DNA from: Pyrinomonadaceae bacterium
GTDB lineage: Bacteria > Acidobacteriota > Blastocatellia > Pyrinomonadales > Pyrinomonadaceae
Length of the DNA: 24,000 nt
Direction: 5' to 3'
NCBI GenBank assembly: GCA_041745575.1
Contig: JBGTIQ010000069.1
Span: 29,480 to 53,479, forward strand
Below, one piece after another: positions 6,154 to 22,532 of this stretch; position 1 is the stretch's first letter, and every line of letters begins with the position of its first letter. The notes below the pieces were generated by a model that searched no databases, was not told the origin of the DNA, and was given only the letters and a program-made list of their open reading frames with translations. The position numbers and the translations under genes were made by a program.

Positions 6154-6175
6154 TCCGAGGCAATCGGGGGAAACG

Positions 6176-6762: not shown

Positions 6763-6812
6763 ATTAAGAACGATTCGAGGCGCACGGCAGCTAGGTGACG
6801 TACTATTTTGAA

Positions 6813-7141: not shown

Positions 7142-7158
7142 CTGAACCATCTCCCAAT

Positions 7159-7609: not shown

Positions 7610-7614
7610 TGCAA

Positions 7615-7800
7615 CCGCCGCGTCAGCGGCGAAATGAGTTTAGCCGTGGCCTTCAGGTCACGTTAATTCATGATATTCGATTTCGTCGCGTCAGCGACGA
7701 TTGAACTATTCGCCATTTCAACCGTCGCTACGCGACGTATCCGATCTCGTTCGTACCGTGGCCTGAAGGCCACGGCTAAATTCATTTGCCCGCTACGCGG
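7615..7800. repeat. REP cluster 3 (composite unit, same orientation as clusters 1 and 2)
   Basis: The same module order as cluster 2 (CCGCCGCGTCAGCGGCG ... TTTAGCCGTGGCCTTCAGGTCACG ... CGTCGCGTCAGCGACG ... CCGTCGCTACGCGACG ... CCGTGGCCTGAAGGCCACGGCTAAATTCATTTGCCCGCTACGCGG). The hairpins are conserved and the spacers have diverged. Confidence 0.85.
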
Positions 7801-7907
7801 TCACTAATACGTTATGATCGCTCTCCCAGAAGACTGATCGCTTTTATCCTACACCTTACGAAGGCTGTACTTGCCATCTCCTCGAACCATCTTCATCCTA
7901 AATACAA

Positions 7908-9380
7908 ATGTCTGATCAATACGATCTCATCGTTATAGGAGGCGGATCGGCGGGGCTCGTCGCCGCCGGCGGGGCCGCGATCCTTGGAGCAAAGGTCGCT
8001 CTCGTTGAGCGCGATCGCCTCGGCGGTGATTGTCTTTATTCGGGGTGTGTTCCATCGAAAACCTTTATTCGTTCGGCGAAGTTTGCACACGAGATGCGCA
8101 ATGCGGATGGATACGGGTTTGAATCTTCGGAGGCGCGATTCCTCAACGATTCGTTCGCATCCGTTATCGAGCGCGTACAGCGCGTGATCGGCGTTGTCGA
8201 AAAGCGCGACGCACCCGAAGTGTTCGAAGAAATGGGCGTCGAGGTTATATTCGGAACCGCGAAATTCACAAGCCCGTACGAGATCGAAGTGGCCATGGAA
8301 GGAGGCAAATCAAAAACGCTAAAGGGAAAGCGGTTCTGCATCTCAACTGGTTCGCGGCCGTTTACGCCGCCGATCGACGGGCTCGAGCAGACTGGCTACA
8401 TCACAAACGAAGATGTCTTTCATATAAAGGCTCTGCCGAAGCGGCTCGTCGTTCTCGGTGGCGGCGCTATCGGCGTTGAGCTTGGCCAGGCGTTCGCACG
8501 TTTCGGATCGGATGTGACGATCGTCGAGATGGGCGACAGGATATTGTCGAAAGAAGAAACCGATGTGTCGTCGTCGATGGAGCAGATATTGAAAGCGGAA
8601 GGCCTGACAATTCTGACCGGTACTAAAGCTATCCGCGCCGCAAAGACCGAGAGCGGTGCCAAGTCGATCACAGTCGAATCGTCGGGGAAAGAGAAAACGA
8701 TTGAGGCTGACGAGATACTCGCCGCCGTCGGCCGCAAGCCGAACATCGACGATCTCGATCTGAAACGCGCAGGAGTCGAATTCGACGAGAAACAGGTCAA
8801 GACGAACGGCCTTCTCCAAACCTCGCAGAAACACATCTACGCCGCCGGCGACGTAACCGGTCACTTTCAGTTCACGCATATGGCCGATTACGAAGCTCGG
8901 ATCGTCATACAGAACGCTTTCGTCCCTTGGCCTTTCAAAAAGAAGGTAGATTTTCGAGTCGTGCCCTGGGCGACGTTTTCCGATCCCGAGATCGGCCGCG
9001 TCGGGATGACCGAGGCGGAGGCGCGAAAGAAGTTTGGCGAGGATGTCGCGATCCACGTGGTCCCACTCGATGCGAATGACCGCGCTCAGGCGAGCGGTTC
9101 GACGGACGGTTTTGTAAAGGTCGTTTCCCACCGTGGTCGGATCGTCGGTGCGACAATTGTCGCGAGCCACGCCGGCGAACTCATTCATGAATATGTCTGG
9201 GCCGTAAAAAACCGGCTCAAGGTCGCGCATCTCAACGAGATCATCCGCGTCTATCCGACGCTGTCAAAGATCACGCAAGAGGTCGGAACCGAGGCGACGC
9301 TCAAGACGTTGAAATCGCCGTTCGTCCAGAGATGGTTCGCGAGATACCTACGTGTCTGGCGCCGGGCGGTCGGATCGTGA
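7908..9380 (+). CDS. Class I pyridine nucleotide-disulfide oxidoreductase (dihydrolipoamide dehydrogenase / mercuric reductase-like), 490 aa
   Basis: FAD fold VIGGGSAG. Redox-active CxxxxC (GGDCLYSGCVPSK). NAD fold VVLGGGAIGVE. C-terminal dimerisation-domain His/Glu (SHAGELIHE). Confidence 0.85.
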   Translation: MSDQYDLIVIGGGSAGLVAAGGAAILGAKVALVERDRLGGDCLYSGCVPSKTFIRSAKFAHEMRNADGYGFESSEARFLNDSFASVIERVQRVIGVVEKRDAPEVFEEMGVEVIFGTAKFTSPYEIEVAMEGGKSKTLKGKRFCISTGSRPFTPPIDGLEQTGYITNEDVFHIKALPKRLVVLGGGAIGVELGQAFARFGSDVTIVEMGDRILSKEETDVSSSMEQILKAEGLTILTGTKAIRAAKTESGAKSITVESSGKEKTIEADEILAAVGRKPNIDDLDLKRAGVEFDEKQVKTNGLLQTSQKHIYAAGDVTGHFQFTHMADYEARIVIQNAFVPWPFKKKVDFRVVPWATFSDPEIGRVGMTEAEARKKFGEDVAIHVVPLDANDRAQASGSTDGFVKVVSHRGRIVGATIVASHAGELIHEYVWAVKNRLKVAHLNEIIRVYPTLSKITQEVGTEATLKTLKSPFVQRWFARYLRVWRRAVGS

Positions 9381-9403
9381 TCCATACGGAAAAAGAAGAG
9401 GGC

Positions 9404-10093
9404 GTGCGTCCCGTAATCATCGTGATGGCAAAGGTACCTCGAACGGGTGCCGTGAAAACGCGTCTCCAGCCGTTCCTCACCGCTGAACAATGTGCGAGCC
9501 TTGCCGAAGCATTCTTGAAAGACACGGTGCGGATGGCTGCGAGTATCTGCGATGACGTGATAGTCGCCTTTGATCCACCGAACGGGCGTGACGAGATCGA
9601 ACAAATTGTCGGCCCCGACGTGTCACTGATCCCACAGAATGGAACGGGGCTTGGCGAACGGCTCGACGGTGCGGTGCAGGAAATCGCGGATCTGAATTTT
9701 AGCCCCGTCCTCATTATCGGTACCGATAGCCCGACGCTGCCTTACGAGTTTCTCATCGATGCGATTGCGGCATTCGGCGAACCCGACACGGACCTTGTTC
9801 TCGGTGGCACAGAGGATGGCGGATATTATTTGATCGCGATGCGCGAGCAGATTCCTGGAATCTTCGATGAAATCCGTTGGAGTTCCGAGCACGTCTATCG
9901 AGACACGCTTGAGAGAGCTCAAACGCTCGGGCTAACACGTATAACCGAGCTTCCGCGTTGGTACGATGTCGATAATCCGCCGGACCTTGTCCGCATCCAA
10001 GAAGAGTTCGCAACCGACGAGTCACTCGCATCCCGGTGTCCGGACACCCACGCGTGGCTTGAAGAAAATCGCCTGAGTTTCGACGAGAGTTAA
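9404..10093 (+). CDS. DUF2064-type nucleotidyl/glycosyl-transferase-like protein (TIGR04282-like, the 'arsenosugar/rSAM-associated transferase 1' family as I recall it); alternative GTG start 9377 overlaps the upstream stop as GTGA
   Basis: N-terminus VRPVIIVMAKVPRTGAVKTRLQP... and the ...GTDSP... motif are typical of DUF2064. GAAGAGGG precedes the GTG at 9404. The ORF opens at 9332 inside the upstream gene. Confidence 0.7.
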   Translation: MRPVIIVMAKVPRTGAVKTRLQPFLTAEQCASLAEAFLKDTVRMAASICDDVIVAFDPPNGRDEIEQIVGPDVSLIPQNGTGLGERLDGAVQEIADLNFSPVLIIGTDSPTLPYEFLIDAIAAFGEPDTDLVLGGTEDGGYYLIAMREQIPGIFDEIRWSSEHVYRDTLERAQTLGLTRITELPRWYDVDNPPDLVRIQEEFATDESLASRCPDTHAWLEENRLSFDES

Positions 10094-10791
10094 TCGGGCG
10101 GTTTGGACGACCGCACAGGTTGATAGAGGTTGGCGAGACTGTCAGGGTGCACGCCGCACCAGAAAAGCACCTGAAGAAAAGACCATCGGGCAAACATCAT
10201 GGGAAAGCTGCGTCCCTCGAACCTTCGAGACGATGTGACCACTTTCGCTTCTAATGTTTTGAATTCTCCCTCGCGTCTGAGGCGATGAAGTAGATCGAGG
10301 TCCTCGAAAAGCGGTAGCGGTTTGAAGCCGCCGACCTTTTCGTAAACTCCCCGGCGGACAAAGATGCCCGAGTCCCCATACGCAAGACCGAGCCGGCCAA
10401 GCTTCGGATAAAGCCAACTCATAAAGCGTGCCGGCCGAGATATGCCGTCGAAGACGATCGTAAAATTGCCTCCGACTACAGACGCATCGGTCAGAGCATT
10501 CATCATCTGATCAACCGCGTCGTCGTCGGGAATCGTATCGGCGTGAACGAACCAGAGCACGCCTCCGGCCGCAGCATCTGCTCCAGCTCTAAGCTGAGCT
10601 CCTCGTCCTTTTTTTGAATGCACGACCCGTGCGCCGTGCTTCATGGCGATATCTGCGGTTCCATCGGAACTTTCTCCGTCTGCGACAATGATCTCCGCAT
10701 CCGGGCAACACCGCTGCAACGACTCGATCGTCGAGCGCAAGGAACGCTCCTCGTTGAACGTCGGGATTATTATCGATACCGTCGGAACCAA
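10090..10791 (-). CDS. Family 2 glycosyltransferase (TIGR04283-like, 'transferase 2' of the same system as I recall it), TTG start
   Basis: VSIIIPTFNEERSL... and ...ADGESSDGT... are GT2 signatures. A GAGGAG SD lies 5 nt upstream of the TTG. It follows the hydroxylase stop after a 16-nt gap. Confidence 0.8.
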   Translation of the reverse strand: MVPTVSIIIPTFNEERSLRSTIESLQRCCPDAEIIVADGESSDGTADIAMKHGARVVHSKKGRGAQLRAGADAAAGGVLWFVHADTIPDDDAVDQMMNALTDASVVGGNFTIVFDGISRPARFMSWLYPKLGRLGLAYGDSGIFVRRGVYEKVGGFKPLPLFEDLDLLHRLRREGEFKTLEAKVVTSSRRFEGRSFPMMFARWSFLQVLFWCGVHPDSLANLYQPVRSSKPPD

Positions 10792-10807
10792 AATATCTCC
10801 TCGTTGT

Positions 10808-11620
10808 TCAATTATCTGATGACGGGGTTGAACCTGAGTGGAAAGGAAGGGCGAGGATCGACTTCAAACCGACGTCGACCGCGAGATCGTCCCCTGGAGC
10901 TCCGATAACGATCGAACTTTGCGGGACGTCGGTCCGTATCGTGCCGTGCAAACGATCCCAGATCGTAAGCCCGCTCGACCAATTCGAGTCTGTTTCAGAA
11001 ACTTCGACTGAATGATGGATGCCGTGCAGCCGCGGCGTCATGATCAGCGAGCTTAACTTATTTTCGACTTGGAGCGGCAGCCTGAGATTGGAGTGGTGAA
11101 AAAGGATCGAGGGCAAAAGGAACGCCTGCCAGGCCTTGAAAGACGACGTTGAAACTCCGATGACGACGATCTGCGCCGATCTCCACACGATCGAGATCAA
11201 CAACTCGCCAAAGTGAAATCGGAGAGCGGTCGACGCGTCGAGGTCGCGGTCGGCGTGATGGACGACGTGAAATCGCCAAAGAAAAGGGACCTTATGCGTC
11301 AGCACGTGCCAGATGTACAGCGTGTAATCGAGCAAGATAACCGCCGCCGCGGCTTCAACCCATTTCGGAAGCGGCACGAGCTTTAAGATACCGACCTGAT
11401 GTTTCTCGACCCATCTCGTCAACCGATCCGTTATCGGCCTTTCAACCAGATAAAGAGAGCACGCAGCCAAGCCCGCGATGGCGAGATTTCTGCCGGTGCG
11501 TGTGGTTGTCGATTCGACAGGCTTTCGCAGCGGGCGTCGTCTCTCCATCACGACAAGCACCGCAAGTGCACCAATAGCCACGGGAACCGACAATGCCTTT
11601 ATTAATTTTGCGACGCCCAT
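10808..11620 (-). CDS. Fatty acid hydroxylase / sterol desaturase superfamily membrane di-iron enzyme (start taken at ATG 11620; the ORF opens at 11662)
   Basis: Histidine boxes HVLTH, HVVHH and HGIHH, with several TM segments. The ATG at 11618-11620 lies 1 nt after the arsS stop (11622-11624). Confidence 0.8.
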   Translation of the reverse strand: MGVAKLIKALSVPVAIGALAVLVVMERRRPLRKPVESTTTRTGRNLAIAGLAACSLYLVERPITDRLTRWVEKHQVGILKLVPLPKWVEAAAAVILLDYTLYIWHVLTHKVPFLWRFHVVHHADRDLDASTALRFHFGELLISIVWRSAQIVVIGVSTSSFKAWQAFLLPSILFHHSNLRLPLQVENKLSSLIMTPRLHGIHHSVEVSETDSNWSSGLTIWDRLHGTIRTDVPQSSIVIGAPGDDLAVDVGLKSILALPFHSGSTPSSDN

Positions 11621-11621
11621 T

Positions 11622-12629
11622 CTATGCTCCTGCAACCGCACCGCCGCACGACGAACCTGCACCGGCCGTGCAGCCGAAACAATGCTCGGCGGTCGTCACA
11701 TGTCGATTCTCGAGCTCCGCCATTTCGAAATCGAAGATCGTCTGCGGCCTGCCGCTCTCGATCGGCAGATCGAGCATCTGATTGAAATCGCAATCGTATA
11801 GTTTTCCGTTCCAGTCGACGCTGATCAGATTCCGGCACATCAATCCGGCAACCGTCTCTGGATTGAAGGCCGCAACAAGCTTTCGCATGTAAGATTCGGC
11901 GTTGCCCGATCGGTGCAGCCATTCGTCGAATCGGGCGATCGGCATGTTCGTGATCGTGAATAGATTGTCGAACACGATCTCGTAACGAGCACTCAGCTCG
12001 TGTTTGAAATCGGCTTCGATCGCGGCTTGCGGCGGCGGGAGAAAAGCTCCGACGGGATTATAGACAAGATCCAGCGTCAGATGTGCCTGACGTCCATACC
12101 CGACATCATTCAGCCGTCGAAGTGCCGAGATCGACTTGTCGAATACGCCGCGACCGCGCTGCGCGTCGGTCTGCTGCGCGAGAAAATACGGGAGACTCGA
12201 AACAAGAGCCACCTCGTTGCGGGCAAAAAACTCCGGAAGATCTTCGTGACCCGATTCGTGCATCACCGTCAGGTTATGTCGAACCATGACCTTCGCCCCG
12301 ATGCGCCGCGCCTCGGTTACGAGATATCGAAAATCGGGGATCAGCTCAGGTGCTCCGCCCGTGACGTCGAGCGTCGGGATCCGGTTTTTTTCTAATACCT
12401 GCAAACATGCGTCGACGACCTCGCGTCCCATGATCTCGGTCCGCGTCGGCGATGCGTCGACATGACAGTGCTTGCACGCCTGATTACACAATTTCCCGAC
12501 GTTGATCTGCAGCGTGCTGATCTCGTTCGAGCGAAGGACGCCGGTGTCGAGGTGATCGGCGAACGATCTCCGAGACGGAGCCATACGTGTTGTGCTTTCG
12601 CGTGGTATCTGAATCGTAGCAGTCGTCAT
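11622..12629 (-). CDS. arsS: Radical SAM / Cys-rich C-terminal domain protein, ArsS-like (arsenosugar biosynthesis radical SAM family, TIGR04167-like)
   Basis: CX3CX2C motif (CNQACKHC) near the N-terminus and a C-terminal Cys cluster (CFGCTAGAGSSCGG). It is translationally coupled to the upstream gene (TAAATG junction at 12627-12632) and sits next to an ArsM-like gene. Confidence 0.8.
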   Translation of the reverse strand: MTTATIQIPRESTTRMAPSRRSFADHLDTGVLRSNEISTLQINVGKLCNQACKHCHVDASPTRTEIMGREVVDACLQVLEKNRIPTLDVTGGAPELIPDFRYLVTEARRIGAKVMVRHNLTVMHESGHEDLPEFFARNEVALVSSLPYFLAQQTDAQRGRGVFDKSISALRRLNDVGYGRQAHLTLDLVYNPVGAFLPPPQAAIEADFKHELSARYEIVFDNLFTITNMPIARFDEWLHRSGNAESYMRKLVAAFNPETVAGLMCRNLISVDWNGKLYDCDFNQMLDLPIESGRPQTIFDFEMAELENRHVTTAEHCFGCTAGAGSSCGGAVAGA

Positions 12630-12959
12630 TTACATCGAGACCTTGTCGTGTGCGTTGTGCGACTGAATTCCATGGATCAGGCTGGCACCGCCGCGGATAG
12701 CAGATGCGAGATGCATCGCCTCGGTCATCTGCTCCATATTCGATCCGTTCTCGAGGCTCGAATTGGTGAACGCCTCGATGCAGTACGGGCATTGGACCGT
12801 GACGGCGACAGCAAGGCCGATCAACGCCTTTTCCCGACGCGAAAGCGCTCCTTCTTCCTGACAGGCCTGGTACCACGCCATGAATTTCTCGAACAAATGC
12901 GGCTGGTATTTTGCGATGTCGCCAAAGCGTTCAAGATCGTCTTCGTTGTAGTAGTGCAT
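12630..12959 (-). CDS. AhpD/carboxymuconolactone decarboxylase-family 'peroxidase-like' protein (start taken at ATG 12959; the longer ORF to 12995 would overlap arsM by 28 nt)
   Basis: CxxC motif in the AhpD-like context (VQCPYCIEAF), ~110 aa. This family is, to my knowledge, a recurrent neighbour of ArsS/ArsM. Confidence 0.75.
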   Translation of the reverse strand: MHYYNEDDLERFGDIAKYQPHLFEKFMAWYQACQEEGALSRREKALIGLAVAVTVQCPYCIEAFTNSSLENGSNMEQMTEAMHLASAIRGGASLIHGIQSHNAHDKVSM

Positions 12960-12967
12960 ATCGTGTT

Positions 12968-14122
12968 TCAGCAACAGCCCGTGTCCGGATCGCACGACGC
13001 CGCACCCGAAAGATCGGTCACGGCGTAATCCATGCCCTTGGTCTCACGCGGATGACGCTTTGCGTTGCGGCGGCAGTCGAATTCAATTGCATCTTCCGCC
13101 GAAATCGGCTCACGCGGCTCGATGCCGATGATGTCATTCGCGTACGGCTCGCGCGTGTAGATCTCGAACGTCTTTTCGCAAACGGCCATTCGCGCTCCGC
13201 GTTCGAGGATGTGCCCGTCATCGTCGATCACCTTCTTCCACGGACCATTGTAGATGACGGCCTGATTCCCTTCCCTGCATTCGCCTTGCTTGCCCTTATA
13301 GGCGACGATCGTCACCGATCGAAACTCGATGCCCCCGACGACTCGCCACGGTTTTTCGTCGCGCTTGACGACCTGCATTCCGTAAAAGCCGGCTCGCTCA
13401 AACGCCTCGATGAACGCATCTTCTCTGAACGCACCCGATATACAGCCGGACCATAGCTCGGGATCGTTCTGCAGATGCTCGGGGACATCCTCGTCGGAAA
13501 CGATGTCCGCGATCGCGACACGGCCGCCGCGTTTGAGCACGCGGAACATCTCGGCAAACATCTGCTCTTTGTCCTCCGGTTTTACCAGATTAAGAACGCA
13601 GTTCGAGAGGATCACGTCAAGGGATGCGTCGGCCACGAGCGGCCGCTCGCTTTTCGCTTTGACGATGAACGTCTCGTAATCGAAGAGGTCCGCCGTCGTT
13701 TGCAGCGGTATGCGCGACAGATATTCTTCGACAAGCGTTAGATCGAGCCTGAGGTCCTGGATCCGGCCATACCGAAATTCCACATTGGCATAACCGATGC
13801 GATCCGCCATCTCATCGCGATATTTGTTTGCAAGCGCGAGCATCTCGGTATTCGTATCGACGCCGATAACGCGTCCCGACGCTCCGACGATCTGCGACGC
13901 GATATAGCAGATCTTCCCGCCACCCGAGCCTAGATCAAGTACGGTATCCCCGGACCTGACAAACTGTGACGGATCGCCGCAGCCGTAGTCCCGCTCGATG
14001 ATCTCGTCGGGCAGGATCTTTAGAAACTTAGGGTCGTACTCCACCGGACAGCAGAGCGCGTCTTCTTTAAGTTTTGCGGCGGCTCCGTACCGTTCGCGGA
14101 CCGCGGTCTCGATCTCATGCAT
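12968..14122 (-). CDS. arsM: Arsenite S-adenosylmethionine methyltransferase, ArsM-like (384 aa)
   Basis: SAM-binding motif VLDLGSGGG. Cysteines in the positions expected for ArsM (N-terminal ALCCPVEYD, YGCGDP, SNCVLNL, WSGCISGA). C-terminal domain ending in a Cys-rich tail (SCDPDTGCC). Confidence 0.85.
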   Translation of the reverse strand: MHEIETAVRERYGAAAKLKEDALCCPVEYDPKFLKILPDEIIERDYGCGDPSQFVRSGDTVLDLGSGGGKICYIASQIVGASGRVIGVDTNTEMLALANKYRDEMADRIGYANVEFRYGRIQDLRLDLTLVEEYLSRIPLQTTADLFDYETFIVKAKSERPLVADASLDVILSNCVLNLVKPEDKEQMFAEMFRVLKRGGRVAIADIVSDEDVPEHLQNDPELWSGCISGAFREDAFIEAFERAGFYGMQVVKRDEKPWRVVGGIEFRSVTIVAYKGKQGECREGNQAVIYNGPWKKVIDDDGHILERGARMAVCEKTFEIYTREPYANDIIGIEPREPISAEDAIEFDCRRNAKRHPRETKGMDYAVTDLSGAASCDPDTGCC

Positions 14123-14224
14123 ACGTCTATTATAGACGATGCTCGATCCGAATCTTTTTATTCCCCGGGACTTCTCTTCATAATAACCCGTCGAACGTAT
14201 CGATCGTCAGATACTGGCTTTCAT

Positions 14225-14257
14225 ATGCAGATCCACGACTTTGTAATTCGCTTTGCG
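14225..14257 (+). pseudogene. 33-bp relic of the korA 5' end (ATG + 10 codons: MQIHDFVIRFA)
   Basis: 29/33 nt identical to 20562-20594 (ATGAAGATCAACGACTTTGTAGTCCGCTTTGCG) on the same strand. Similarity stops abruptly after codon 11. Confidence 0.7.
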
Positions 14258-14394
14258 TCCAGCCTTCCTCTCCAACCTGATTTCTGTCATTTTTGTAATT
14301 CGACTATAAGTGTGGGCTCGTAAAGTTATTTGAGCTCGAGGATATGACGACTCCCACAAGTGACACTTCAACCACGCTCGGTTGGGATATAACT

Positions 14395-14433
14395 AACGGC
14401 TCTGCCGCTTGGTGTGCGCAGCCGTCTTGGAAG
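14395..14433. repeat. Copy 3 of the ~45-nt pre-REP motif
   Basis: AACGGCTCTGCCGCTTGGTGTGCGCAGCCGTCTTGGAAG. It lies ~60 nt upstream of REP cluster 4. Confidence 0.5.
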
Positions 14434-14492
14434 ATTTAGACTGAATCCCTCGTCTGCGCCAAGTTTATAATGGCGGTAGACGCTCGGAGGGT

Positions 14493-14573
14493 CGCGTAGC
14501 GGCCGCATGCATTTAGCCGTGGCCTTCAGGCCACGGTTTTTCGACGACAGAGGTCCTGCCGCGTCAGCGGTAG
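14493..14573. repeat. REP cluster 4 (variant REP, left flank of RAYT2)
   Basis: CGCGTAGCGGCCGCATGCATTTAGCCGTGGCCTTCAGGCCACGG plus the hairpin CTGCCGCGTCAGCGGTAG. It ends 7 nt before the RAYT2 stop. Confidence 0.85.
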
Positions 14574-14579
14574 TTGGAA

Positions 14580-15032
14580 TCAATCGAAAACGTATTGCAG
14601 GTCGTACTCGATACCATGCAGTCTCAGAAGCGAGATATATTCCTCTTCGAAGGTCTCGTTATAGTGATGCTCTCGCTGGTTCTCGATATATCGAATGACG
14701 TCGGGAACTTGTGATTTGCTTACGGAGAATATGCCGTAGCCGTCCTGCCAGCTGAAATCGCTCAGGTTCGGGAATTCGTCGTGAATCCACTTGGAGGAGC
14801 CACCTTTTAGCCACATTGGAATCTTACACGGAGGAACGACCGGCTTCGCCATAACAAGTCCGTGAACATGATTCTCGATACCGCCAACTCTCAAAGAAGT
14901 TACGTCGTGTTTCCGCGCGATTCCGCCCATGTAGTCCCAAACACGTTCTTCGATCTCTTGGTGAATAAAGTTACGCCGTTCTTTTGTACTAAAGACAATG
15001 TGGTAGAAGAGCTGGGAGTACGTGTTTGCCAT
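14580..15032 (-). CDS. REP-associated tyrosine transposase (RAYT), intact, 150 aa
   Basis: MANTYSQLFYHIVFSTK..., HUH motif NHVHGLV, and the C-terminal catalytic-Tyr motif RYIENQREHH. It is flanked by REPs in inverted orientation. By-eye identity to the 7159-7609 copy is roughly 70 percent. Confidence 0.9.
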   Translation of the reverse strand: MANTYSQLFYHIVFSTKERRNFIHQEIEERVWDYMGGIARKHDVTSLRVGGIENHVHGLVMAKPVVPPCKIPMWLKGGSSKWIHDEFPNLSDFSWQDGYGIFSVSKSQVPDVIRYIENQREHHYNETFEEEYISLLRLHGIEYDLQYVFD

Positions 15033-15051
15033 CGTCGCAGATTCCGTTCAT

Positions 15052-15134
15052 CTGCCGCTGACGCGGCAGAATCACTGTGATACTTTGACCGTGGCCTAAA
15101 AGGCCACGGCTAAATGCGTGCGGCCGCTACGCGG
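15052..15134. repeat. REP cluster 5 (variant REP, right flank of RAYT2; reverse complement of cluster 4)
   Basis: CTGCCGCTGACGCGGCAG plus CCGTGGCCTAAAAGGCCACGGCTAAATGCGTGCGGCCGCTACGCGG. Confidence 0.85.
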
Positions 15135-15310
15135 CTGCGAAGCCATTCGCATTGAATTGCCGCTATTTTAAGCCCGGGGAAGCGTAGACGTCTTTAATTT
15201 TTCTTAATCGTTCGGAACACAGGGATGCGTGCACACCACTGATAAGGCGGACGACAATTATCGAAGATCGCTTTGTTTCAAGGGCACTTTCGGTTAATCC
15301 TACATAGAGC

Positions 15311-16768
15311 ATGGAACACCTCGACGTTCTAATTGTTGGTGCGGGCCTCTCAGGTATAGGAGCTGCATGTCAGCTCAGCATGGCGTGTCCGCAGAAGAGC
15401 TTCGCGATACTCGAAGGACGGGATGCGATGGGCGGGACGTGGGACCTGTTTCGCTACCCGGGAGTTCGTTCAGATTCCGACATGTACACGCTCGGTTACA
15501 GATTTCGGCCGTGGCGTAACGCCAAGGCGATCGCCGACGGGCCGGCCATCCTCAACTACATCCGTGACACGGCCGGTGAATTCGGCGTCGATAAAAAGAT
15601 CCGGTACGGGTACCGGGCAAAGACAGCGTCATGGTCATCCTACGACGCTCTCTGGACGGTCGAAACGCTGACGAGCACCGGAACAAAAACTCTCACCTGC
15701 AACTTTCTATATCTCTGCACTGGTTATTACGATTACGAGAATGGATACACGCCCGAATGGCCCGGGGTCGAACAATTTCGTGGACAGATCATTCATCCAC
15801 AGAAGTGGCCCAAAGATTTGGACTATGAAAATAAACGAGTCATCGTGATAGGCAGCGGGGCGACCGCCGTCACGCTCGTACCCGCGATGGCCGAGACCGC
15901 GGAACATGTCACGATGCTTCAGCGTTCGCCGACGTACATCATGACGCTTCCGGCTGAGGATCGCATCGCGAACTTTCTCCGCCGCATCTTTCCTGAGCGC
16001 GCGTCGTATGCCGTGACGCGCTGGAAGAATGTCATGCTCCAGATGTTCTTCTACGTCCTCTCACGGAGGCGGCCCGCGACGATGAAGCGTCTGATCGCGA
16101 AAGGTGTGCGGACCGAACTCGGAGAGGGATATGACATCGCGCACTTTACTCCATCGTATGACCCGTGGGATCAGCGACTGTGTCTCGTGCCCGACTCAGA
16201 TCTTTTTCGGGTGATTCGTGACGGGCGTGCATCTATGGTGACCGATCAGATTGTGACCTTCACCGAGACGGGGCTGCAGCTAAAATCGGGAAGGCATATC
16301 GAAGCGGATATTATCGTCACAGCGACGGGTCTCAACCTCAAACTTATGGCGGGACTTCAGCTGGTCGTCGACGATGAGCCGGTGGATATGTCGAAGACGA
16401 TGGCTTACAAAGGAATGATGTACAGCGACGTTCCCAATCTCGCGTCGGCTTTTGGCTACACCAACGCATCGTGGACATTGAAGTGCGATCTTACCGCGGA
16501 GTACGTCTGCCGTATGCTGAACTACATGGACCGATATGGATTCGCACGGTGCACTCCGCGGCTGAACGATCCTTCGGTAAGACCCGAGCGCGTATTGGAT
16601 TTCACCTCAGGTTACGTCGAGCGGGCGCTTCACACATTGCCGAGTCAGGGTTCGAAAACGCCGTGGCGTTTACATCAGAACTACATCAAGGATCTTTCAA
16701 TGCTGCGATACGGCCGCGTCGCCGACGGCACCATGGAATTCGAGAAGCAAAAAAGACCGTCCGGATAG
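15311..16768 (+). CDS. Flavin-dependent Baeyer-Villiger-type monooxygenase (EthA/FMO-like), 485 aa
   Basis: FAD fold VGAGLSG. BVMO fingerprint FxGxxxHxxxWP (FRGQIIHPQKWP). Second dinucleotide fold VIGSGATA. Confidence 0.85.
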   Translation: MEHLDVLIVGAGLSGIGAACQLSMACPQKSFAILEGRDAMGGTWDLFRYPGVRSDSDMYTLGYRFRPWRNAKAIADGPAILNYIRDTAGEFGVDKKIRYGYRAKTASWSSYDALWTVETLTSTGTKTLTCNFLYLCTGYYDYENGYTPEWPGVEQFRGQIIHPQKWPKDLDYENKRVIVIGSGATAVTLVPAMAETAEHVTMLQRSPTYIMTLPAEDRIANFLRRIFPERASYAVTRWKNVMLQMFFYVLSRRRPATMKRLIAKGVRTELGEGYDIAHFTPSYDPWDQRLCLVPDSDLFRVIRDGRASMVTDQIVTFTETGLQLKSGRHIEADIIVTATGLNLKLMAGLQLVVDDEPVDMSKTMAYKGMMYSDVPNLASAFGYTNASWTLKCDLTAEYVCRMLNYMDRYGFARCTPRLNDPSVRPERVLDFTSGYVERALHTLPSQGSKTPWRLHQNYIKDLSMLRYGRVADGTMEFEKQKRPSG

Positions 16769-16821
16769 GGACAACTACTCGAACAAAACCGATCGTACGT
16801 CAGGTGAAATAGCCTTGCCTT

Positions 16822-17235
16822 TCAAACCGTGTCTGGACGCCCATCGTCACCGAGAAACTCTTGCATCCGAACGGCGATAGCTGCCGCTCGCTCCTTGAGA
16901 TAGTCCGCACGCTCACCTGCAAAATTTTCATCGATCGTTATGGAAAAGATCTCGAGCCATCGCCGGAAATGGTCGGCGGTCAAGGCCAGTTTTTCGTGTA
17001 GCTCTTTGTGAACGAGTAGTGGGTTCCGACCGTGAATAGAATATGCAGGCGTCCCGAACAGCAGGCTCTCCCAAAAATCGCCGATGATCGGCAAATGATG
17101 TTCGAGATCGAGCTTTGCGACATCGGTGAATATGAATCCGATGACATCGTCAACCAGCACGCGTTCATAGAACACCTGCATTAGGCGGTCGATGTCATCC
17201 CTGGTTGCGATATCGTCCACAGTGTCTAGCTCCAT
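16822..17235 (-). CDS. Group III truncated haemoglobin-like globin (start taken at ATG 17235; the ORF opens at 17346 but that extension runs through a hairpin repeat)
   Basis: ~137 aa with the pattern IDRLMQVFYERVLVD..IG.IF...DLEHHLP.IGDFWES.LFG...Y.G.P...H, which I recognise as trHb group III-like. It lies directly downstream of norB on the same strand. Confidence 0.7.
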   Translation of the reverse strand: MELDTVDDIATRDDIDRLMQVFYERVLVDDVIGFIFTDVAKLDLEHHLPIIGDFWESLLFGTPAYSIHGRNPLLVHKELHEKLALTADHFRRWLEIFSITIDENFAGERADYLKERAAAIAVRMQEFLGDDGRPDTV

Positions 17236-17278
17236 GCGTTCGTAGATTTCCGGATCCGCAGGCGGATCACACCAATAC

Positions 17279-17340
17279 AACAGGGATGAAGGGGATGAAC
17301 GGAATACATGAAGAATCCCATCATCCCCTTCATCCCTGTT
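17279..17340. repeat. Perfect 20-bp inverted repeat with a 22-nt loop, arms built of GGGATGA-type heptamers
   Basis: AACAGGGATGAAGGGGATGA (17279-17298) against TCATCCCCTTCATCCCTGTT (17321-17340). It starts 8 nt after the norB stop codon. Confidence 0.9.
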
Positions 17341-17347
17341 AATCAAA

Positions 17348-19591
17348 CTACGCCTGCGCAGGTTCAGGCACCAATGCCGGTTCAGGTTTCTGCTTTCGGA
17401 TCATCAGACTTATCGCAAACCAAACAAAAGCGACCGCGCCTATCGCAAACACGGTGTCGCCGAACAGACGCATCCACCTCAGGTTCTGCATAAGCGGGGT
17501 TTGCATGAACTCCGGACTTCGCGCATACCAGTAACCCTCGTTGACGGATTGGTAGGTTTGCAGAAGGCCGATCGGCAACAGGCTGAACATGATCTCCATG
17601 AGCATGCCGATATTGATCGCCCAAAACGCGAACCCGAGCAGCTTGGTGTTCCAGATCCGCTGCGGGTCCATCGCACGCATGCAAAAGAGCAGAAGGGCGA
17701 GGCCGAGTGTTCCGTACACACCATAAAGAGCTCCGTGTGCGTGGACGGCGGTCGTGTTCAATCCCTGCATGTAATAGAGAGCGATCGGCGGATTGATCAT
17801 AAAGCCGAAGATGCCGGCTCCAACCAGATTCCAAAACGCCACCGCGACAAAAAAGTACACGACCCACTTGTATTGGGCGAGCCATGGCCGAACCTTTGAA
17901 TGACGGATGTTCTCGAGCGCTTCGTAACCGACGAAAACAAGCGGCACGATCTCGAGGGCGCTGAACACTGAGCCAAAGGCGAGCGCGACCGTCGGTGTAC
18001 CGGCGAAATAGAGATGATGCAGTGTGCCGATGATACCGCCGCTCAGGTAGATCGCGCCCGACAGCAAGGCAGCGTACGCCGCGTGTTCGGGACGAATGAC
18101 CTTAAGTCGCGCAAAAAGATATGCGATGACGACGGTGGCAAACACTTCGAAGAATCCTTCGACCCACAGATGCACGACCCACCATCTCCAATACTCGACG
18201 ACCGTCAAATGCGACCGCATTCCCCAGAACAATCCCGGGGCGTAAAACAGAGCTATACCGGCTGTTGTCAAAAGGTAGAGCATCACAAGCGAACGCCCGG
18301 GAGTTTCCTTTTTTCTGAGTGCGGGGATCGCGGAGCGGGCGATCAGAAAAAGCCATAGCAGCAGTCCGACGAACAACGCCGCCTGCCAGACGCGGCCAAG
18401 ATCCACGTACTCATATCCCTGATGACCGAACCAGAACCACAGGTCGCCCGGCAGCATATGCATGACGCTCATCCACTGTCCGGCCATCGATCCAAGAACG
18501 ACGACGAGCAGCGCACCGAATAGCAGGTCGACGCCGAGCTTTTGGCGCTTCGGCTCATACCCGCAAATGTATGGTGCTATAAAAAGTCCGGCCGCGAGCC
18601 ACGCGGTCGCGATCCAGAAGATGCCTAGCTGTGTATGCCATGTGCGCGTAACGACATATGGGAGGTAATCCTGCAACGGGATCCCATAGAATCCGCCGCC
18701 TTCGACGCCGTAGTGCGCCGTTATTATTCCCATCACGATCTGCAACAGAAACAATAACGAAACCACGAAGAAATATTTGACCGTGGCCTTTTGCGATGGC
18801 GTGAGCTTGGCGTCGATCAGCGGATCTTCGTCGGGCGTGTCACGCTGGTCCGGTTCTTTGTGCCAGCCTGCATAGAACCAGACCATGGCGCCGATGCCGG
18901 CGATCAGCATGATAACGCTGACTCCGGTCCAGACGATCGCCGAGCTCGTCGGAACATTCCCGACGAGCGGTTCAGCGGGAAAATTGCTGGTGTATGAAAT
19001 TGTATTGTTCGGGCGGTTCGCGGCCGATGCCCACGCTGTCCAGAAGAAGAATGAGTTGAGCTGTCGAAGCTTTACCGGATTCGATTGAGCATTCTTCTGA
19101 ATCGCGTAGTCGGAGTTTCCGTCGGTGAAGATCTCGCTATAGTGTGCGAGATTGCTTTCGAAAGCACGTTTGCGGATCGGGTCGACCTCGATCGTGTTCG
19201 TTGCCTCGTCGTACGTATTGGTCCGCAGCAGATCTTGAAGACGCTGCTTTAGCATCGCCTGCTGCTCGCTCGGCAGTCCACCGCGTGAAAATTGTCCGCC
19301 CGACCAATCGTCGAGGATGAAAACGGCCTCACGATGAAGATAGTCAGCCGTCCAGTCAGGCGCGACATAACTGCCGTGTCCCCATATCGAGCCGACCTGC
19401 ATCCCGCCCATCGCCTGCCATACGTTCTGCCCGTCGGAAATCGCTTCTTCAGGGATGACAATTTCACCGGTGGTCGTCACGACCTGCGTCGGTATCGGCG
19501 GAGCCTGACGGAAGATCTCAGTCCCGACCCAGCCGAGTATGGCGAACGAAAACACGAAGATCGACACCAACAAAATCCAGAGTTTTTTCAT
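17348..19591 (-). CDS. norB: Quinol-dependent nitric oxide reductase (qNOR, single-subunit NorB/NorZ type), 747 aa
   Basis: N-terminal TM plus a ~200-aa periplasmic extension fused to a haem-copper-oxidase subunit I-like 12-TM core with conserved His clusters (WWVVHLWVEGF, GTLHHLYF, VHAHGALYG). GAGGA SD 5 nt upstream of the ATG. Confidence 0.9.
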   Translation of the reverse strand: MKKLWILLVSIFVFSFAILGWVGTEIFRQAPPIPTQVVTTTGEIVIPEEAISDGQNVWQAMGGMQVGSIWGHGSYVAPDWTADYLHREAVFILDDWSGGQFSRGGLPSEQQAMLKQRLQDLLRTNTYDEATNTIEVDPIRKRAFESNLAHYSEIFTDGNSDYAIQKNAQSNPVKLRQLNSFFFWTAWASAANRPNNTISYTSNFPAEPLVGNVPTSSAIVWTGVSVIMLIAGIGAMVWFYAGWHKEPDQRDTPDEDPLIDAKLTPSQKATVKYFFVVSLLFLLQIVMGIITAHYGVEGGGFYGIPLQDYLPYVVTRTWHTQLGIFWIATAWLAAGLFIAPYICGYEPKRQKLGVDLLFGALLVVVLGSMAGQWMSVMHMLPGDLWFWFGHQGYEYVDLGRVWQAALFVGLLLWLFLIARSAIPALRKKETPGRSLVMLYLLTTAGIALFYAPGLFWGMRSHLTVVEYWRWWVVHLWVEGFFEVFATVVIAYLFARLKVIRPEHAAYAALLSGAIYLSGGIIGTLHHLYFAGTPTVALAFGSVFSALEIVPLVFVGYEALENIRHSKVRPWLAQYKWVVYFFVAVAFWNLVGAGIFGFMINPPIALYYMQGLNTTAVHAHGALYGVYGTLGLALLLFCMRAMDPQRIWNTKLLGFAFWAINIGMLMEIMFSLLPIGLLQTYQSVNEGYWYARSPEFMQTPLMQNLRWMRLFGDTVFAIGAVAFVWFAISLMIRKQKPEPALVPEPAQA

Positions 19592-19639
19592 TTTGGTCCT
19601 CGGACAGCGTGAAAAAGCGGAGGCGCTTGTGTGCCCATT

Positions 19640-19669
19640 TATATACTGAGTTGGAATACACTAGTCCAA
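19640..19669 (-). promoter_or_regulatory. Candidate norB promoter (TTGGAC-N18-TATATA on the minus strand)
   Basis: The -10 complement is at 19640-19645 and the -35 complement at 19664-19669, ~50 nt upstream of the norB ATG. Sequence inspection only. Confidence 0.3.
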
Positions 19670-19685
19670 AGACTCTGCCGGCGTC

Positions 19686-19701
19686 TGTGTGTTACGTCAC
19701 A
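19686..19701. promoter_or_regulatory. CRP/FNR-family type palindromic site TGTGT-N6-TCACA in the norB upstream region
   Basis: TGTGTgttacgTCACA matches the TGTGA-N6-TCACA class of sites used by CRP/FNR-family regulators (including HcpR-type nitrosative-stress regulators). It is centred ~100 nt upstream of the norB ATG. Confidence 0.35.
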
Positions 19702-19722
19702 AAGGGCGGGCTTTTTCGCATC

Positions 19723-19751
19723 TTCACATTTCGCCGATGACGCACTATCAT
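19723..19751 (+). promoter_or_regulatory. Candidate plus-strand promoter TTCACA-N17-TATCAT (would drive the korA relic, TA cassette and korA)
   Basis: Hexamers at 19723-19728 and 19746-19751 with a 17-nt spacer. Sequence inspection only. Confidence 0.3.
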
Positions 19752-19845
19752 TGTCGATAACGATCAAGCCTTCACTAAAAACGCAGCTTATAGAAATATG
19801 AAAGACGGCTCTGTCCGTGAAAATGCTCGCGGGTCGAAAGATGTT

Positions 19846-19953
19846 ATAAAGATCAACCACCTCGTCGTCCGGTTTGCGAATGTCAACGGCACCGGTTCGG
19901 CGTCGGTGAATGCGCTGTTTACAAAAGCAGTGTTTCGCATGGGCGTGCCCGTT
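19846..19953 (+). pseudogene. Relic copy of korA codons 1-36 (start codon mutated ATG->ATA), truncated by a repeat half-site
   Basis: 19849-19953 aligns with 20565-20669 with 8 mismatches in 105 nt (IKINHLVVRFANVNGTGSASVNALFTKAVFRMGVPV vs MKINDFVVRFANVNGTGSASANALFTKAVFRMGVPV). Homology ends at 19953. Confidence 0.85.
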
Positions 19954-19956
19954 CGG

Positions 19957-19983
19957 GTCAGAACAGGGTGCGGTAGCGACTGG
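19957..19983. repeat. Single arm (half-copy) of the 3132-3219 hairpin element
   Basis: GTCAGAACAGGGTGCGGTAGCGACTGG against GTCAGAACCGCGAGCGGTAGCGACCGG (22/27 identical). No matching second arm follows. Confidence 0.65.
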
Positions 19984-20031
19984 ATTCTCACACGACTGCC
20001 GGTGTTATAATTGCGAGGGAGGAAAGTAGAT

Positions 20032-20256
20032 ATGTCAGTGATCGCAGAAGCCGAAGAACTAGCCCTTAGCCTCTCCGACTCGGACCGTGCCAAACTCGCC
20101 GAAAAGCTTATTGCCTCGTTGCCTTCACCGTTCGTTGAAGAAGATGAGGAATGGGTGGAAGCGGCCTTGCAACGCGACCGTGAGATGGACGAAAACCCCG
20201 ACTCGGTCATGACCCATGAAGAATTTTTCGCTTCACTTAGAGACCATAACAAGTGA
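20032..20256 (+). CDS. Type II antitoxin, 'putative addiction module component' type (74 aa, acidic)
   Basis: A GGGAGGAAAG SD precedes the ATG at 20032. N-terminal ...AEELALSLSDSDRAKLAEKLIASL... resembles the small addiction-module-component family as I recall it. Its stop overlaps the toxin start (GTGA). Confidence 0.75.
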   Translation: MSVIAEAEELALSLSDSDRAKLAEKLIASLPSPFVEEDEEWVEAALQRDREMDENPDSVMTHEEFFASLRDHNK

Positions 20257-20549
20257 TACGGGCCTCCTACAGTTCTGCGGCTAACCGTGATGTTAAGCGA
20301 GCACTGGATTATTACAAGCGAGAAGCGGGGGTCAGGGTCGCGGATGATTTTATTGCGCAGCTCAAGTCGAAGGTTGAAAAAGTACTTATAAGTCCCGAAT
20401 CGTACCGAGTGGTCGAACGAGATTTCCGGTGTGCCAATCTTGATCGTTTCCCGTATCAAATTGTTTACAGAATTGCTAACGCATCGGTGATTAGGATCAT
20501 TTCGGTTCGCCATCATAAGCAGCATCCTGATTTCGGACTGAACCGCTGA
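20253..20549 (+). CDS. Type II toxin, ParE/RelE superfamily (98 aa)
   Basis: Size, basic character, a C-terminal ...IRIISVRHHKQHP... pattern typical of ParE/RelE-like plasmid-stabilisation toxins, and a 4-nt overlap with the upstream antitoxin gene. Confidence 0.75.
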   Translation: MIRASYSSAANRDVKRALDYYKREAGVRVADDFIAQLKSKVEKVLISPESYRVVERDFRCANLDRFPYQIVYRIANASVIRIISVRHHKQHPDFGLNR

Positions 20550-20561
20550 CCCACTTTGATG

Positions 20562-22532
20562 ATGAAGATCAACGACTTTGTAGTCCGCTTTGCGAATGTG
20601 AACGGCACCGGTTCGGCGTCGGCGAATGCGCTGTTTACAAAAGCAGTGTTTCGCATGGGCGTGCCGGTTACGCCGAAGAACATCTTTCCGTCGAACATCC
20701 AGGGGCTGCCGACGTGGTACGAGGTGCGTATTTCGGAAAGCGGGCATCTTGGCCGCCGAGAGGGCGTCGATCTGATGATCGCCGTCAATCCGCAATCGAT
20801 GAAAAAAGATTACGCCGATGTTCGCGAAGGTGGATATTTTCTTTATGACTCGTCGAAACCTCTCGCGCCCGCATACGATCGGACCGACATTACACACATC
20901 GGCATCCCGCTTATGGCGCTCTGCAATGCCGAATTTACCGATGCACGCCAGCGCCAGCTTTTTAAGAACATTGTCTACATCGGAGCCCTCGTCGCGCTGT
21001 TCGGGATCGAGTTTGAAATGCTCGAGCAGCTTGTCGGCGAACAGTTCCGCGGCAAGGAGAAATTGATCGAGCCAAACATCCGAGCTCTCAACATCGGCAT
21101 AAAATACGCGAGCGAGAATTTCGAATGTCCCTTAGATATACGCGTCGAACGGCGCGACCTGCTCGGCGATAAAGTTCTCTACAGCGGTAATTCAGCGTGC
21201 GCACTCGGTGCGATCTATGCCGGAGCGACCGTCGCCGCGTGGTATCCGATCACCCCTTCGACATCAGTTGTCGATGCGTTTGCCAAGTATGCCGCAAAGT
21301 ATCGCGTCGACGCCGAGACGGGGATGAACAACTACGCGATCGTTCAGGCCGAGGACGAACTCGCGGCGATCGGAATGGTGATGGGCGCCTGCTGGAACGG
21401 CGCACGTGCGTTCACCGCGACGAGCGGTCCGGGCATCTCTCTGATGAACGAGTTCCTCGGATTAGGTTATTTTGCAGAGGTGCCGACCGTGCTGATCGAC
21501 GTTCAGCGGACCGGTCCCTCGACCGGCATGCCGACGCGGACACAGCAATCGGATATCTTGCTTGCGGCGTACGCATCGCACGGCGATACGAAACACCCGC
21601 TGCTGTTCCCCGCATCACCGAAAGAATGTTTCGAGATGACGGCCGACGCCTTTGATCTGACCGAGCGTCTTCAGACCCCGGTCATAGTCATGACAGATCT
21701 TGATCTCGGGATGAACGATCACATCACCGAGCCTCTTGTTTGGGACGACGCCCGTAAATTCGACCGCGGCAAGGTCCTTACGGCCAGACATCTGGAACGC
21801 GTCGGCGGTGCGGAGCAGGCCGATATTGTCGAGGGAATGGAGAACGAGACGGACGGCGACGCGTTTGCCGGAAGCGCGATCGAACAGTTTCGCGGTAAAT
21901 TTGGGCGCTATCTGGACATCGACGACGACGGAATTCCGTACCGCACGGTGCCCGGTGTTCATCCGACGCGCGGAGCGTACGTCACGCGCGGCTCATCGCG
22001 TGACGAGTACGCCGTCTACACCGAGGACGGCGACGTTTATCGCCGTAACATGGACCGCCTCGCCCGCAAATGGGACACGGCGAAGGAACTGGTGCCGCAG
22101 CCGGAATTTTATGGCGACGCGGGGACGGGGCGACACGGAGAAGGGGAGAAAGGGAGAAGGGGAGATGGGCCGACCTCTGACTCATCACTCATCACTCATC
22201 ACTCATCACCAAAAAATGACGCCGTCATTTTTTTCGGCACCTCCACATACGCTGCGATCGAGGCATTGCAGCTATTAGCCGACGAAGGTGTCCATCTCGA
22301 CGCAATGCGTGCCCGTGCATTCCCTTTTGGAAAGTCGTTTCGGGATTTCGTTGACTCACACGACCGCGTCTTCGTCATCGAACAAAACCGCGATGCGCAA
22401 TTTCGCAGCCTGATGATGATCGAATTAGGAGCCGACGCATCGAAGCTCATTTCGGTTCTGAACTACGACGGCATGCCGATCACGGCGGATAACATCTTCA
22501 GACAGATTCATTCATTTTCTCAGAACCCCTGA
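20562..22532 (+). CDS. korA: 2-oxoacid:ferredoxin oxidoreductase, fused gamma-alpha ('alpha') subunit (start ATG 20562 or 20559; the ORF opens at TTG 20556)
   Basis: N-terminal gamma-type domain (VRFANVNGTGSASANALF..., NIQGLPTWYEVRIS). Alpha/pyrimidine-binding domain (GNSACALGAIYAGATVAAWYPITPST, ...TATSGPGISLMNEFLGLGYFAEVPTVLIDVQRTGPSTGMPT). C-terminal domain III (VIFFGTSTYAAIEA...VFVIEQNRDAQF). Confidence 0.85.
   Translation: MKINDFVVRFANVNGTGSASANALFTKAVFRMGVPVTPKNIFPSNIQGLPTWYEVRISESGHLGRREGVDLMIAVNPQSMKKDYADVREGGYFLYDSSKPLAPAYDRTDITHIGIPLMALCNAEFTDARQRQLFKNIVYIGALVALFGIEFEMLEQLVGEQFRGKEKLIEPNIRALNIGIKYASENFECPLDIRVERRDLLGDKVLYSGNSACALGAIYAGATVAAWYPITPSTSVVDAFAKYAAKYRVDAETGMNNYAIVQAEDELAAIGMVMGACWNGARAFTATSGPGISLMNEFLGLGYFAEVPTVLIDVQRTGPSTGMPTRTQQSDILLAAYASHGDTKHPLLFPASPKECFEMTADAFDLTERLQTPVIVMTDLDLGMNDHITEPLVWDDARKFDRGKVLTARHLERVGGAEQADIVEGMENETDGDAFAGSAIEQFRGKFGRYLDIDDDGIPYRTVPGVHPTRGAYVTRGSSRDEYAVYTEDGDVYRRNMDRLARKWDTAKELVPQPEFYGDAGTGRHGEGEKGRRGDGPTSDSSLITHHSSPKNDAVIFFGTSTYAAIEALQLLADEGVHLDAMRARAFPFGKSFRDFVDSHDRVFVIEQNRDAQFRSLMMIELGADASKLISVLNYDGMPITADNIFRQIHSFSQNP
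22137..22209. repeat. In-frame repeat element in korA: purine-rich GGGAGAA-like array followed by (ACTCATC)x4
   Basis: 22137-22168 reads GGAGAAGGGGAGAAAGGGAGAAGGGGAGATGG. 22180-22207 reads ACTCATC x4 (perfect) plus AC. It is translated as ...GEGEKGRRGDGPTSDSSLITHHSSP.... Confidence 0.85.

Follow-up and report, generated by a model that had tools for sequence, protein, structure and literature searches.

By sequence comparison, the korA locus in the stretch of 24,000 nucleotides analysed here (the window) is a head-to-tail series of three alternative forms of the same locus, each closing in a korA 5′ end. In order, arsM is followed by korA codons 1-11 (relic 1), the qNOR gene by codons 1-36 (relic 2), and a toxin-antitoxin (TA) pair by the full korA gene (Table 1). 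The stack probably arose by one-sided homologous recombination on korA with an illegitimate joint at the left end, the source being versions of the locus carried by relatives, and it is a further example of an already known kind of event. Footprints of one-sided homologous recombination are rarely so legible in natural genomes, with ordered versions, dated scars and relatives that still have the empty site. Read in this way, the locus would be a direct record of a soil acidobacterium gaining a nitric-oxide reductase block and a TA module without mobile-element machinery.

Table 1. Features of the korA locus in the window, and segments collinear with two relatives (L numbers denote loci of relatives; J1 is the junction at the right end of relic 1)
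Feature	Position	Strand	Basis and remarks
arsM-like methyltransferase gene	left neighbour of relic 1	divergent from korA start	Pfam
Native arsM-korA divergent spacer, 102 nt, retained upstream of relic 1	14123..14224	+	aligns with arsM-korA spacer of L169 and L002
Relic 1, korA codons 1-11	14225..14257	+	29/33 to intact korA and to L169 korA; collinear L002 and L169 alignments stop at 14257
Left end of inserted DNA, 233 nt; J1 between 14257 and 14258	14258..14490	.	GC 49%; no counterpart among loci searched
RAYT2 unit: IS200-like Y1 transposase gene (14580-15032) between inverted REP arms	14491..15138	-	Pfam Y1_Tnp, 3.5e-27; inverted repeats I15 and I17
BVMO (FMO-like) gene	15311..16768	+	Pfam; block A cargo
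Truncated globin (Bac_globin) gene	16822..17346	-	Pfam; block A cargo
qNOR gene (NorB/COX1, quinol NO reductase)	17348..19591	-	Pfam; block A cargo
Native qNOR-korA spacer, retained upstream of relic 2	19714..19845	+	alignment to L008
Relic 2, korA codons 1-36, 108 nt	19846..19953	+	92% identical to intact 20562-20669; start codon now ATA
REP-like 30-nt motif (GTCAGAAC..GCGGTAGCGACTGG), left edge of block B right after relic 2	19957..19986	+	
Type II TA cassette: antitoxin 20032-20256, ParE toxin 20253-20549	20032..20549	+	Pfam Unstab_antitox, ParE_toxin
Intact korA, fused gamma and alpha subunit, 2-oxoacid:ferredoxin oxidoreductase	20562..22532	+	Pfam POR and POR_N; right-hand homologous anchor
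Alignment to L002	window 7868-14257 with L002 3646-10033; window 20556-23992 with L002 9995-13393		
Alignment to reverse complement of L169	window 7920-14257 with 4946-11290; window 20556-24000 with 11252-14727		

Truncated korA copies and relatives with an empty site

Relic 1 (ATGCAGATCCACGACTTTGTAATTCGCTTTGCG) and korA codons 1-11 at 20562-20594 (ATGAAGATCAACGACTTTGTAGTCCGCTTTGCG) are identical at 29 of 33 bases on the same strand, the four substitutions altering three residues. The preliminary description of the window, in which this recurrence was reported, held chance to be an unlikely cause, and the numbers bear it out: with the gene itself set aside, matches to the korA 33-mer in the 24-kb window rank 29/33 (at 14225), 27/33 (relic 2, at 19846) and then 20/33, and the top match in shuffled windows (n = 300, first-order Markov) is at most 23/33. 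The similarity begins at the ATG and ends after codon 11. Past that codon no KorA likeness was found by blastn, tblastn or in-frame translation (SSLPLQPDF..., unrelated), nor was there any sign in these comparisons of the decayed paralogue running on beyond codon 11 that had been named as the case against a scar. Over korA nt 1-33, L169 agrees with the intact gene of the window, and relic 1 departs from both at four positions. The spacer retained upstream of relic 1 is conserved, relative to L169 and L002, in its arsM-proximal part and has diverged over the last ~20 nt before the old ATG, as expected for a korA ribosome-binding region now out of use. On these comparisons the 33-mer is what is left of the resident korA at its 5′ end, together with its native arsM-korA spacer. 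The surviving ATG, behind the old korA upstream region, opens a predicted 32-codon ORF (MQIHDFVIRFASSLPLQPDF...) at 14225-14323.

A KorA scan with one genome per species gave 80 loci, all from metagenome-assembled genomes of Pyrinomonadaceae/Blastocatellia (Acidobacteriota). The nearest by KorA protein identity are L001 (GCA_037969295.1; 95%) and L002 (92%); in L169 (GCA_040006435.1), arsM is 94% identical at the protein level and korA-sigE 90% identical at the DNA level. arsM and korA are divergent neighbours in both L002 and L169, separated by 102 nt in L169 and about 100 nt in L002, and the arsM-korA adjacency without either block that was presupposed in the preliminary description therefore exists. 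The left-hand alignments to these two relatives both break at 14257, the final base of the 33-mer, and the right-hand ones resume at 20556, so that 14258-20555 (6.3 kb) is extra DNA in the window. To the right of 20556 the window is collinear with L002, L169 and L001. An ancient, conserved three-copy arrangement, the other observation held in advance to speak against serial acquisition, was not seen among the relatives.

Sliding identity to L169 is 90-93% over 11120-13500, 86% in the last interval before 14257 and ~90% over 20556-24000, and this similar closeness of both flanks of the insertion fits a resident arsM-korA(-sigE) backbone. The average identities to L169 of 83% on the left and 90% on the right were considered as a sign of different histories and rejected, because a diverged PNDR490 segment had lowered the average. 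The ars-side block is itself a mosaic (7920-9500 versus 11120-14257): the PNDR490 gene is L002-like (82-90%, versus 67-72% to L169), and the arsS-arsM part is mostly L169-like (90-93%, versus 84-91% to L002), with the exception of the last ~700 nt before 14257. Downstream of korA, the window (22533-24000), L001, L002 and L169 lack korB, unlike most relatives. An anti-sigma/ECF sigma pair on the other strand stands in its place, and the operon is thus split in all four.

The second copy, previously delimited as 105 bp at 19849-19953, proved to be 108 nt long. Window positions 19714-19943 align at 79% identity with L008 9870-10095, a segment made up of the qNOR-korA spacer and the korA 5′ end of that locus. 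As reconstructed, the ancestral relic 2 would have differed from korA at only ~2/108 positions (~98% identity). The independently assembled L001 matches the window in having relic 2 followed by the REP-like motif, a TA pair and korA, with the same junction J2 at the right end of relic 2. J2 is therefore real and was in place before the window lineage and L001 diverged. L001 also contains, between its qNOR gene and the relic, an extra ORF of 188 codons without Pfam match (4092-4706), which stands in place of window 19771-19850 and the first codons of relic 2. The L001 contig terminates within the BVMO gene, the Logan contig L168 (94% BVMO) stops 43 nt past RAYT2, and an L001-like arsM copy was not found by arsM search. 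The exact 22-mer across J1 had no match in the JGI metagenomes, and the korA scan of metagenome contigs gave none above 80% identity and no intermediate states.

Both relics are decaying, relic 1 with 4 changes in 33 nt and a diverged ribosome-binding region, relic 2 with loss of its start codon. The extent of this decay suggests, on small counts that make for weak evidence, that J1 is the older junction.

Content of the inserted blocks

The gene assignments of the preliminary description (arsM, RAYT2, BVMO, truncated haemoglobin, qNOR, TA and korA) hold by Pfam. The compositional difference between blocks that it proposed to look for turned out to be uninformative, the blocks having 50-56% GC and all plausible donors belonging to the same family.

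Homology to L002 and L169 stops abruptly at 14257, and the first 233 nt of block A (14258-19845) match no fetched locus. With blastn (word size 7, E ≤ 10) against the first 80 genome loci, 14258-14488 gave no match, only the korA relic and REP being matched beside it; 14258-14490 was likewise uncovered by blastn against L169. The RAYT2 unit, 233 nt from J1, is conserved as one module with 88-90% identity in L008 and L169, and is linked to the BVMO gene in several relatives. RAYT2-BVMO also occurs in L169 at the position occupied in the window by RAYT1 (7078-7587), around which lie three ~190-nt direct repeats of REP pairs (5967-7803, with 848- and 802-nt spacing). At 2336-2460, short repeats of the GGAAT/CGCAT type form inverted arms inside a 638-codon ORF. 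The BVMO-globin-qNOR group adjoins korA, without TA pair or relic, in L008, L082, L083 and L084, and qNOR adjoins korA in L004, whose contig begins inside qNOR. A 25-nt inverted repeat (92% complementary) is found near the globin start, just before the qNOR stop (region 17279-17340).

Block B opens with the REP-like motif, a 30-nt element (consensus GTCAGAACCGGGAGCGGTAGCGACTGGGTT) that is recurrent in the family, its 14-mer core occurring about 20 times without mismatch in 1.2 Mb. Sites of the element include 19957-19986 and 3132-3219 in the window, L001 ~7016, L016 11558, L040 5055, L043 5656, L075 6144 and L078 5864, and it takes the form of single copies before TA promoters or of inverted pairs. 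In relatives the motif lies between the DUF2200 stop codon and the TA promoter; in some genomes the element is found in frame inside korA (SEPGAVATG), in the variable linker and the C-terminal region. It was rejected as a general recombination site, being missing at the L033 and L072 junctions and in L034. An extended -10-like box, TGTTATAAT, lies upstream of the TA cassette. About 20 of the first 80 loci have a homologous antitoxin/ParE pair ~10 nt before korA, and a TA pair immediately precedes korA in dozens of relatives. Since the ParE stop is ~10 nt from the korA start both in the window (20549-20562) and in ~20 relatives, korA is probably co-transcribed from the autoregulated TA promoter. 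Promoter/terminator, Rfam and tRNA scans gave nothing relevant near the relics. Because the TA pair and qNOR are both found adjoining korA in relatives, the right end of each block is a korA junction that existed beforehand and not the end of a random insertion.

Gene-end copies and cassettes across the family

In its compact form (e.g. L059, L060, L122, L163), the operon consists of a gltD-like gene, DUF2200, korA and korB, with gaps of 6-60 nt. In most genomes its boundaries are enlarged by 0.4-6.7 kb each, and the gltD-to-korA distance of the window, 15.3 kb with no korB nearby, is the largest seen. Self-comparison of 157 Pyrinomonadaceae loci (1.9 Mb) for direct-repeat pairs of 45-600 nt, at least 75% identical and 300-7000 nt apart, gave 79 pairs inside the operon span (0.94 Mb) versus 10 outside it (0.97 Mb), and 6 of these 10 are still core-gene relics. 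Across the 157 loci the repeats have a median length of 101 nt and the gaps a median of 643 nt. The repeats are ends of gltD (3′), DUF2200 (3′), korA (5′ and 3′) and korB (5′). Anchoring of scars on the korA 5′ end, as put forward in the preliminary description, thus stands for that site and is not peculiar to it, the other gene ends being used in the same way family-wide.

The cargo checked by Pfam is mostly type II TA: ParE/Unstab_antitox, BrnT, HigB with HTH, DUF433 with DUF5615/PIN, HicB/HicA, CopG antitoxin, and DUF2281 with PIN. Seven or more types of TA cassette have accumulated in a single housekeeping operon, at each of its gene boundaries and always beside ~100-nt gene-end copies. 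This natural collection lends itself well to the question of whether a specific recombination route is what spreads addiction modules. Mirror-image relics of the korA 3′ end occur in L014/L034, L036, L040, L044, L075 and L141, with two nested in L141. In L132 (1-8500), successive cassettes (RelE-like, VapBC, DUF433/PIN and others) are set apart by five or more copies of the gltD 3′ end, 60-140 nt in length, and 5′ and 3′ relics of DUF2200 come next; no integrase was seen among the ORFs of this array, listed by eye. The korA 3′ relics of L014 (6903-7040) and L034 (12675-12812) are 81.5% identical in DNA and 41/46 in protein, and both are open, the korA genes being 76% identical; within its first 51 nt the L014 relic does not differ from the intact korA of the same locus. 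The relic-cassette structures of L014/L034 and of L040/L065 are as diverged as the core genes, yet the relics stay near the intact gene in sequence, which suggests that gene conversion or selection acts on them.

One could go further and regard the gltD-DUF2200-korA-korB operon as an integrase-free cassette platform, on which a TA cassette with a ~100-nt gene-end copy is a self-propagating unit, an extension that we consider rather doubtful. Cassettes would be excised by recombination between their flanking direct repeats and would re-enter naive operons by single crossover; gene conversion would keep the repeats usable, and the outcome would be integron-like with host recombination alone.

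Origin of the stack and comparison with known systems

According to the favoured account, arsM and korA stood back to back in the ancestor, as they still do in L169 and L002. Incoming DNA would have derived from close relatives with other versions of the locus, ...RAYT2-BVMO-globin-qNOR-korA in one case and REP motif-TA-korA in the other. In each event, the right end would have been fixed by a homologous crossover within korA, and the left end by an illegitimate joint inside the resident korA 5′ end, once after codon 11 and once after codon 36. A complete korA would each time have been regained from the incoming copy, the truncated resident copy being left behind with its own upstream spacer. 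Block A probably came first and the TA pair second; there may have been two events, or a single import of an already composite donor. The underlying mechanism would be homology-facilitated illegitimate recombination, or break repair templated by a differently arranged copy of the locus. A homologous right end combined with an illegitimate left end on korA was the explanation offered in the preliminary description, and it is supported as the best fit by the empty sites, the native spacers and the variable breakpoints.

As each relic carries its own native spacer, the blocks derive from, or became joined to, loci in which korA was already the neighbour, and random insertion would not give those junctions. 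Sliding identity revealed no clear breakpoint of an imported 5′ segment in korA; the donors would hence be very close relatives, or the crossovers would lie within the first ~150 nt. In its textbook form, homology-facilitated illegitimate recombination usually replaces or deletes recipient DNA, and a copy of the anchor is not left behind. Given the retained relics, the illegitimate joint must fall inside the region homologous to the donor. The clustering of relic lengths around ~100 nt (median 101) may reflect a mechanism with a preferred length scale, which is a point against the favoured account, and the difference of only ~2/108 between ancestral relic 2 and korA also fits duplication within the genome.

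In the account ranked second, and considered unlikely, small circles made of a cassette and a short gene-end piece integrate in Campbell fashion, one homologous crossover joining each to the gene end already present. Such a circle would be closed by end joining, or would be released from an existing cassette when its flanking direct repeats recombine; the duplicated length would equal the gene piece on the circle, and the junction (e.g. korA nt 108 with the REP motif) would be its closure point. Circles account for a gene-end copy on both sides as well as one-sided recombination does, and they explain the clustering of repeats near 100 nt (with gaps of median 643 nt), a length sufficient for RecA recombination. 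They are also in keeping with the presence of the same junction and the same cassette in L014 and L034, whose korA genes are only 76% identical, with the near-identity of ancestral relic 2 to korA, and with a similar life cycle put forward for restriction-modification units that lie between long direct repeats (PMC2853133). Against this, no circular form was seen, and a 33-nt anchor bearing 6.3 kb would be a very inefficient substrate. Moreover, the L014/L034 and L040/L065 structures, being about as diverged as the flanking core genes, fit old vertical inheritance and not recent spread, and at the end of block A the native qNOR-korA spacer is whole, as it would be on a linear fragment from a differently arranged locus.

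Site-specific recombination, by an integrase acting in trans or in an integron-like manner on a target in the korA 5′ end to which cassettes are added, was mentioned as an alternative in the preliminary description and is now very improbable. The recurrence of insertions at the same gene ends, the L132 cassette arrays with their repeated separators, and the conserved REP-like motif at the left edge of many TA cassettes, block B included, would all be expected of such a system. Independent korA 5′ relics are however found in L033 (61 nt), L116 (~100 nt) and L072 (~495 nt), each with different cargo, so that together with the window korA 5′ relics end at five positions (33, 61, ~100, 108 and ~495 nt), and the 3′ relics start at varied codons (~603-626). 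Pfam scanning of all major ORFs of the window detected no integrase or IntI, and in the 6.3-kb insert no integrase or transposase other than RAYT2. Truncation points that vary from one independent event to another, and the lack of an integrase, make a single fixed site of integration unlikely. The REP-like motif is missing at the 5′ relic junctions of L033 and L072, and from L034 despite the same cassette as in L014, and the separators are gene-end copies and share no attC-like element.

Two related candidates were rejected. A transposon with target-site duplication does not apply, as no inverted repeats bound 14258-20561 or 19954-20561, and the duplications, 33 and 108 nt, vary between events; an integron cassette array is not compatible with the lack of an integrase in the window and with cassette separators that are copies of neighbouring gene ends. 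In a left-anchored, mirror-image alternative, gltD would be the anchor and the ars block the import; this is less parsimonious, since in both empty-site relatives arsM adjoins korA and the flanks match on both sides.

The least probable reading is that the 33-mer is no scar and comes from chance similarity, from a decayed oxidoreductase paralogue or from a chimeric join in metagenome assembly. In its favour, the contig probably belongs to a metagenome-assembled genome, as do those of all relatives, and J1 has so far been seen in one contig only, its 22-mer being absent from the JGI metagenomes. Against it, the match exceeds all shuffles, its left edge coincides with the ATG, the 102 nt before it are orthologous spacer, and nothing paralogue-like follows codon 11. 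A chimera would need a shared k-mer, but relic 1 has four differences from the other copies and runs into unique sequence, and the sister junction J2 recurs in an independent assembly.

Interpreted as one-sided recombination on korA, the stack can be set beside several known systems. Neisseria minimal mobile elements are variable cassette sites between conserved genes, exchanged among related strains by recombination in the flanks, and are described as clean replacements. The korA locus differs in that alternative versions are stacked and truncated copies of the flank are kept. A full-text literature search for Acidobacteria, toxin-antitoxin and Pyrinomonadaceae jointly found no paper.

Homology-facilitated illegitimate recombination (de Vries & Wackernagel 2002; Prudhomme et al. 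2002; Meier & Wackernagel 2003), as far as it is presented in papers citing these studies (PMC5361080, PMC3240628), likewise has one end anchored by homology, here in korA, and the other joined non-homologously, does without a dedicated recombinase, and leads to the gain of foreign genes beside a conserved gene. At the korA locus, in contrast, the joint lies inside the anchor gene and a truncated copy of the anchor is kept, and the event is deduced from genome comparison, not observed. Serial displacement by the same process has been proposed for the orphan immunity arrays of the Vibrio cholerae T6SS and for Rhs genes (Kirchberger et al. 2017, PMC5361080), further examples named being Rhs C-terminal displacement (Jackson et al. 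2009) and CDI orphan modules. There too, imports are anchored on a conserved gene, older modules are pushed outward and truncated gene ends serve as separators. Those arrays, however, lie 3′ of polymorphic toxin genes and are selected for immunity, whereas the anchors here are housekeeping oxidoreductase genes, used at both 5′ and 3′ ends, and the cargo is TA or metabolic.

Insertion with long target duplication was described for restriction-modification units (Nobusato et al. 2000; Furuta, Abe & Kobayashi 2010, PMC2853133), which have no mobility genes, are flanked by repeats of 46-423 bp, frequently lying across a start or stop codon, and have an empty site in a relative; the thresholds used were repeats above 30 bp and an insert below 20 kb. 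The repeats in the window, 33 nt (88%) and 108 nt (92%), exceed the length threshold of 30 bp, and each is single copy in relatives, in L169/L002 and in L008-type loci, respectively. Block B (0.6 kb, TA only) also agrees in size and in lacking mobility genes; the 6.3-kb insert carries RAYT2, a Y1 transposase homologue. Common to both are repeats that span a gene start or stop with the target gene left intact, and a cargo of the addiction type. In contrast to the described units, the cargo consists of TA pairs and a 5.6-kb metabolic block in place of restriction-modification genes, native spacers show that one copy of the repeat came with the insert and was not copied from the target, the host belongs to the Acidobacteriota, and the events are nested and mostly gathered in one operon. 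The pattern seen across the family extends insertion with long target duplication, so far a matter of restriction-modification genes, to type II TA systems.
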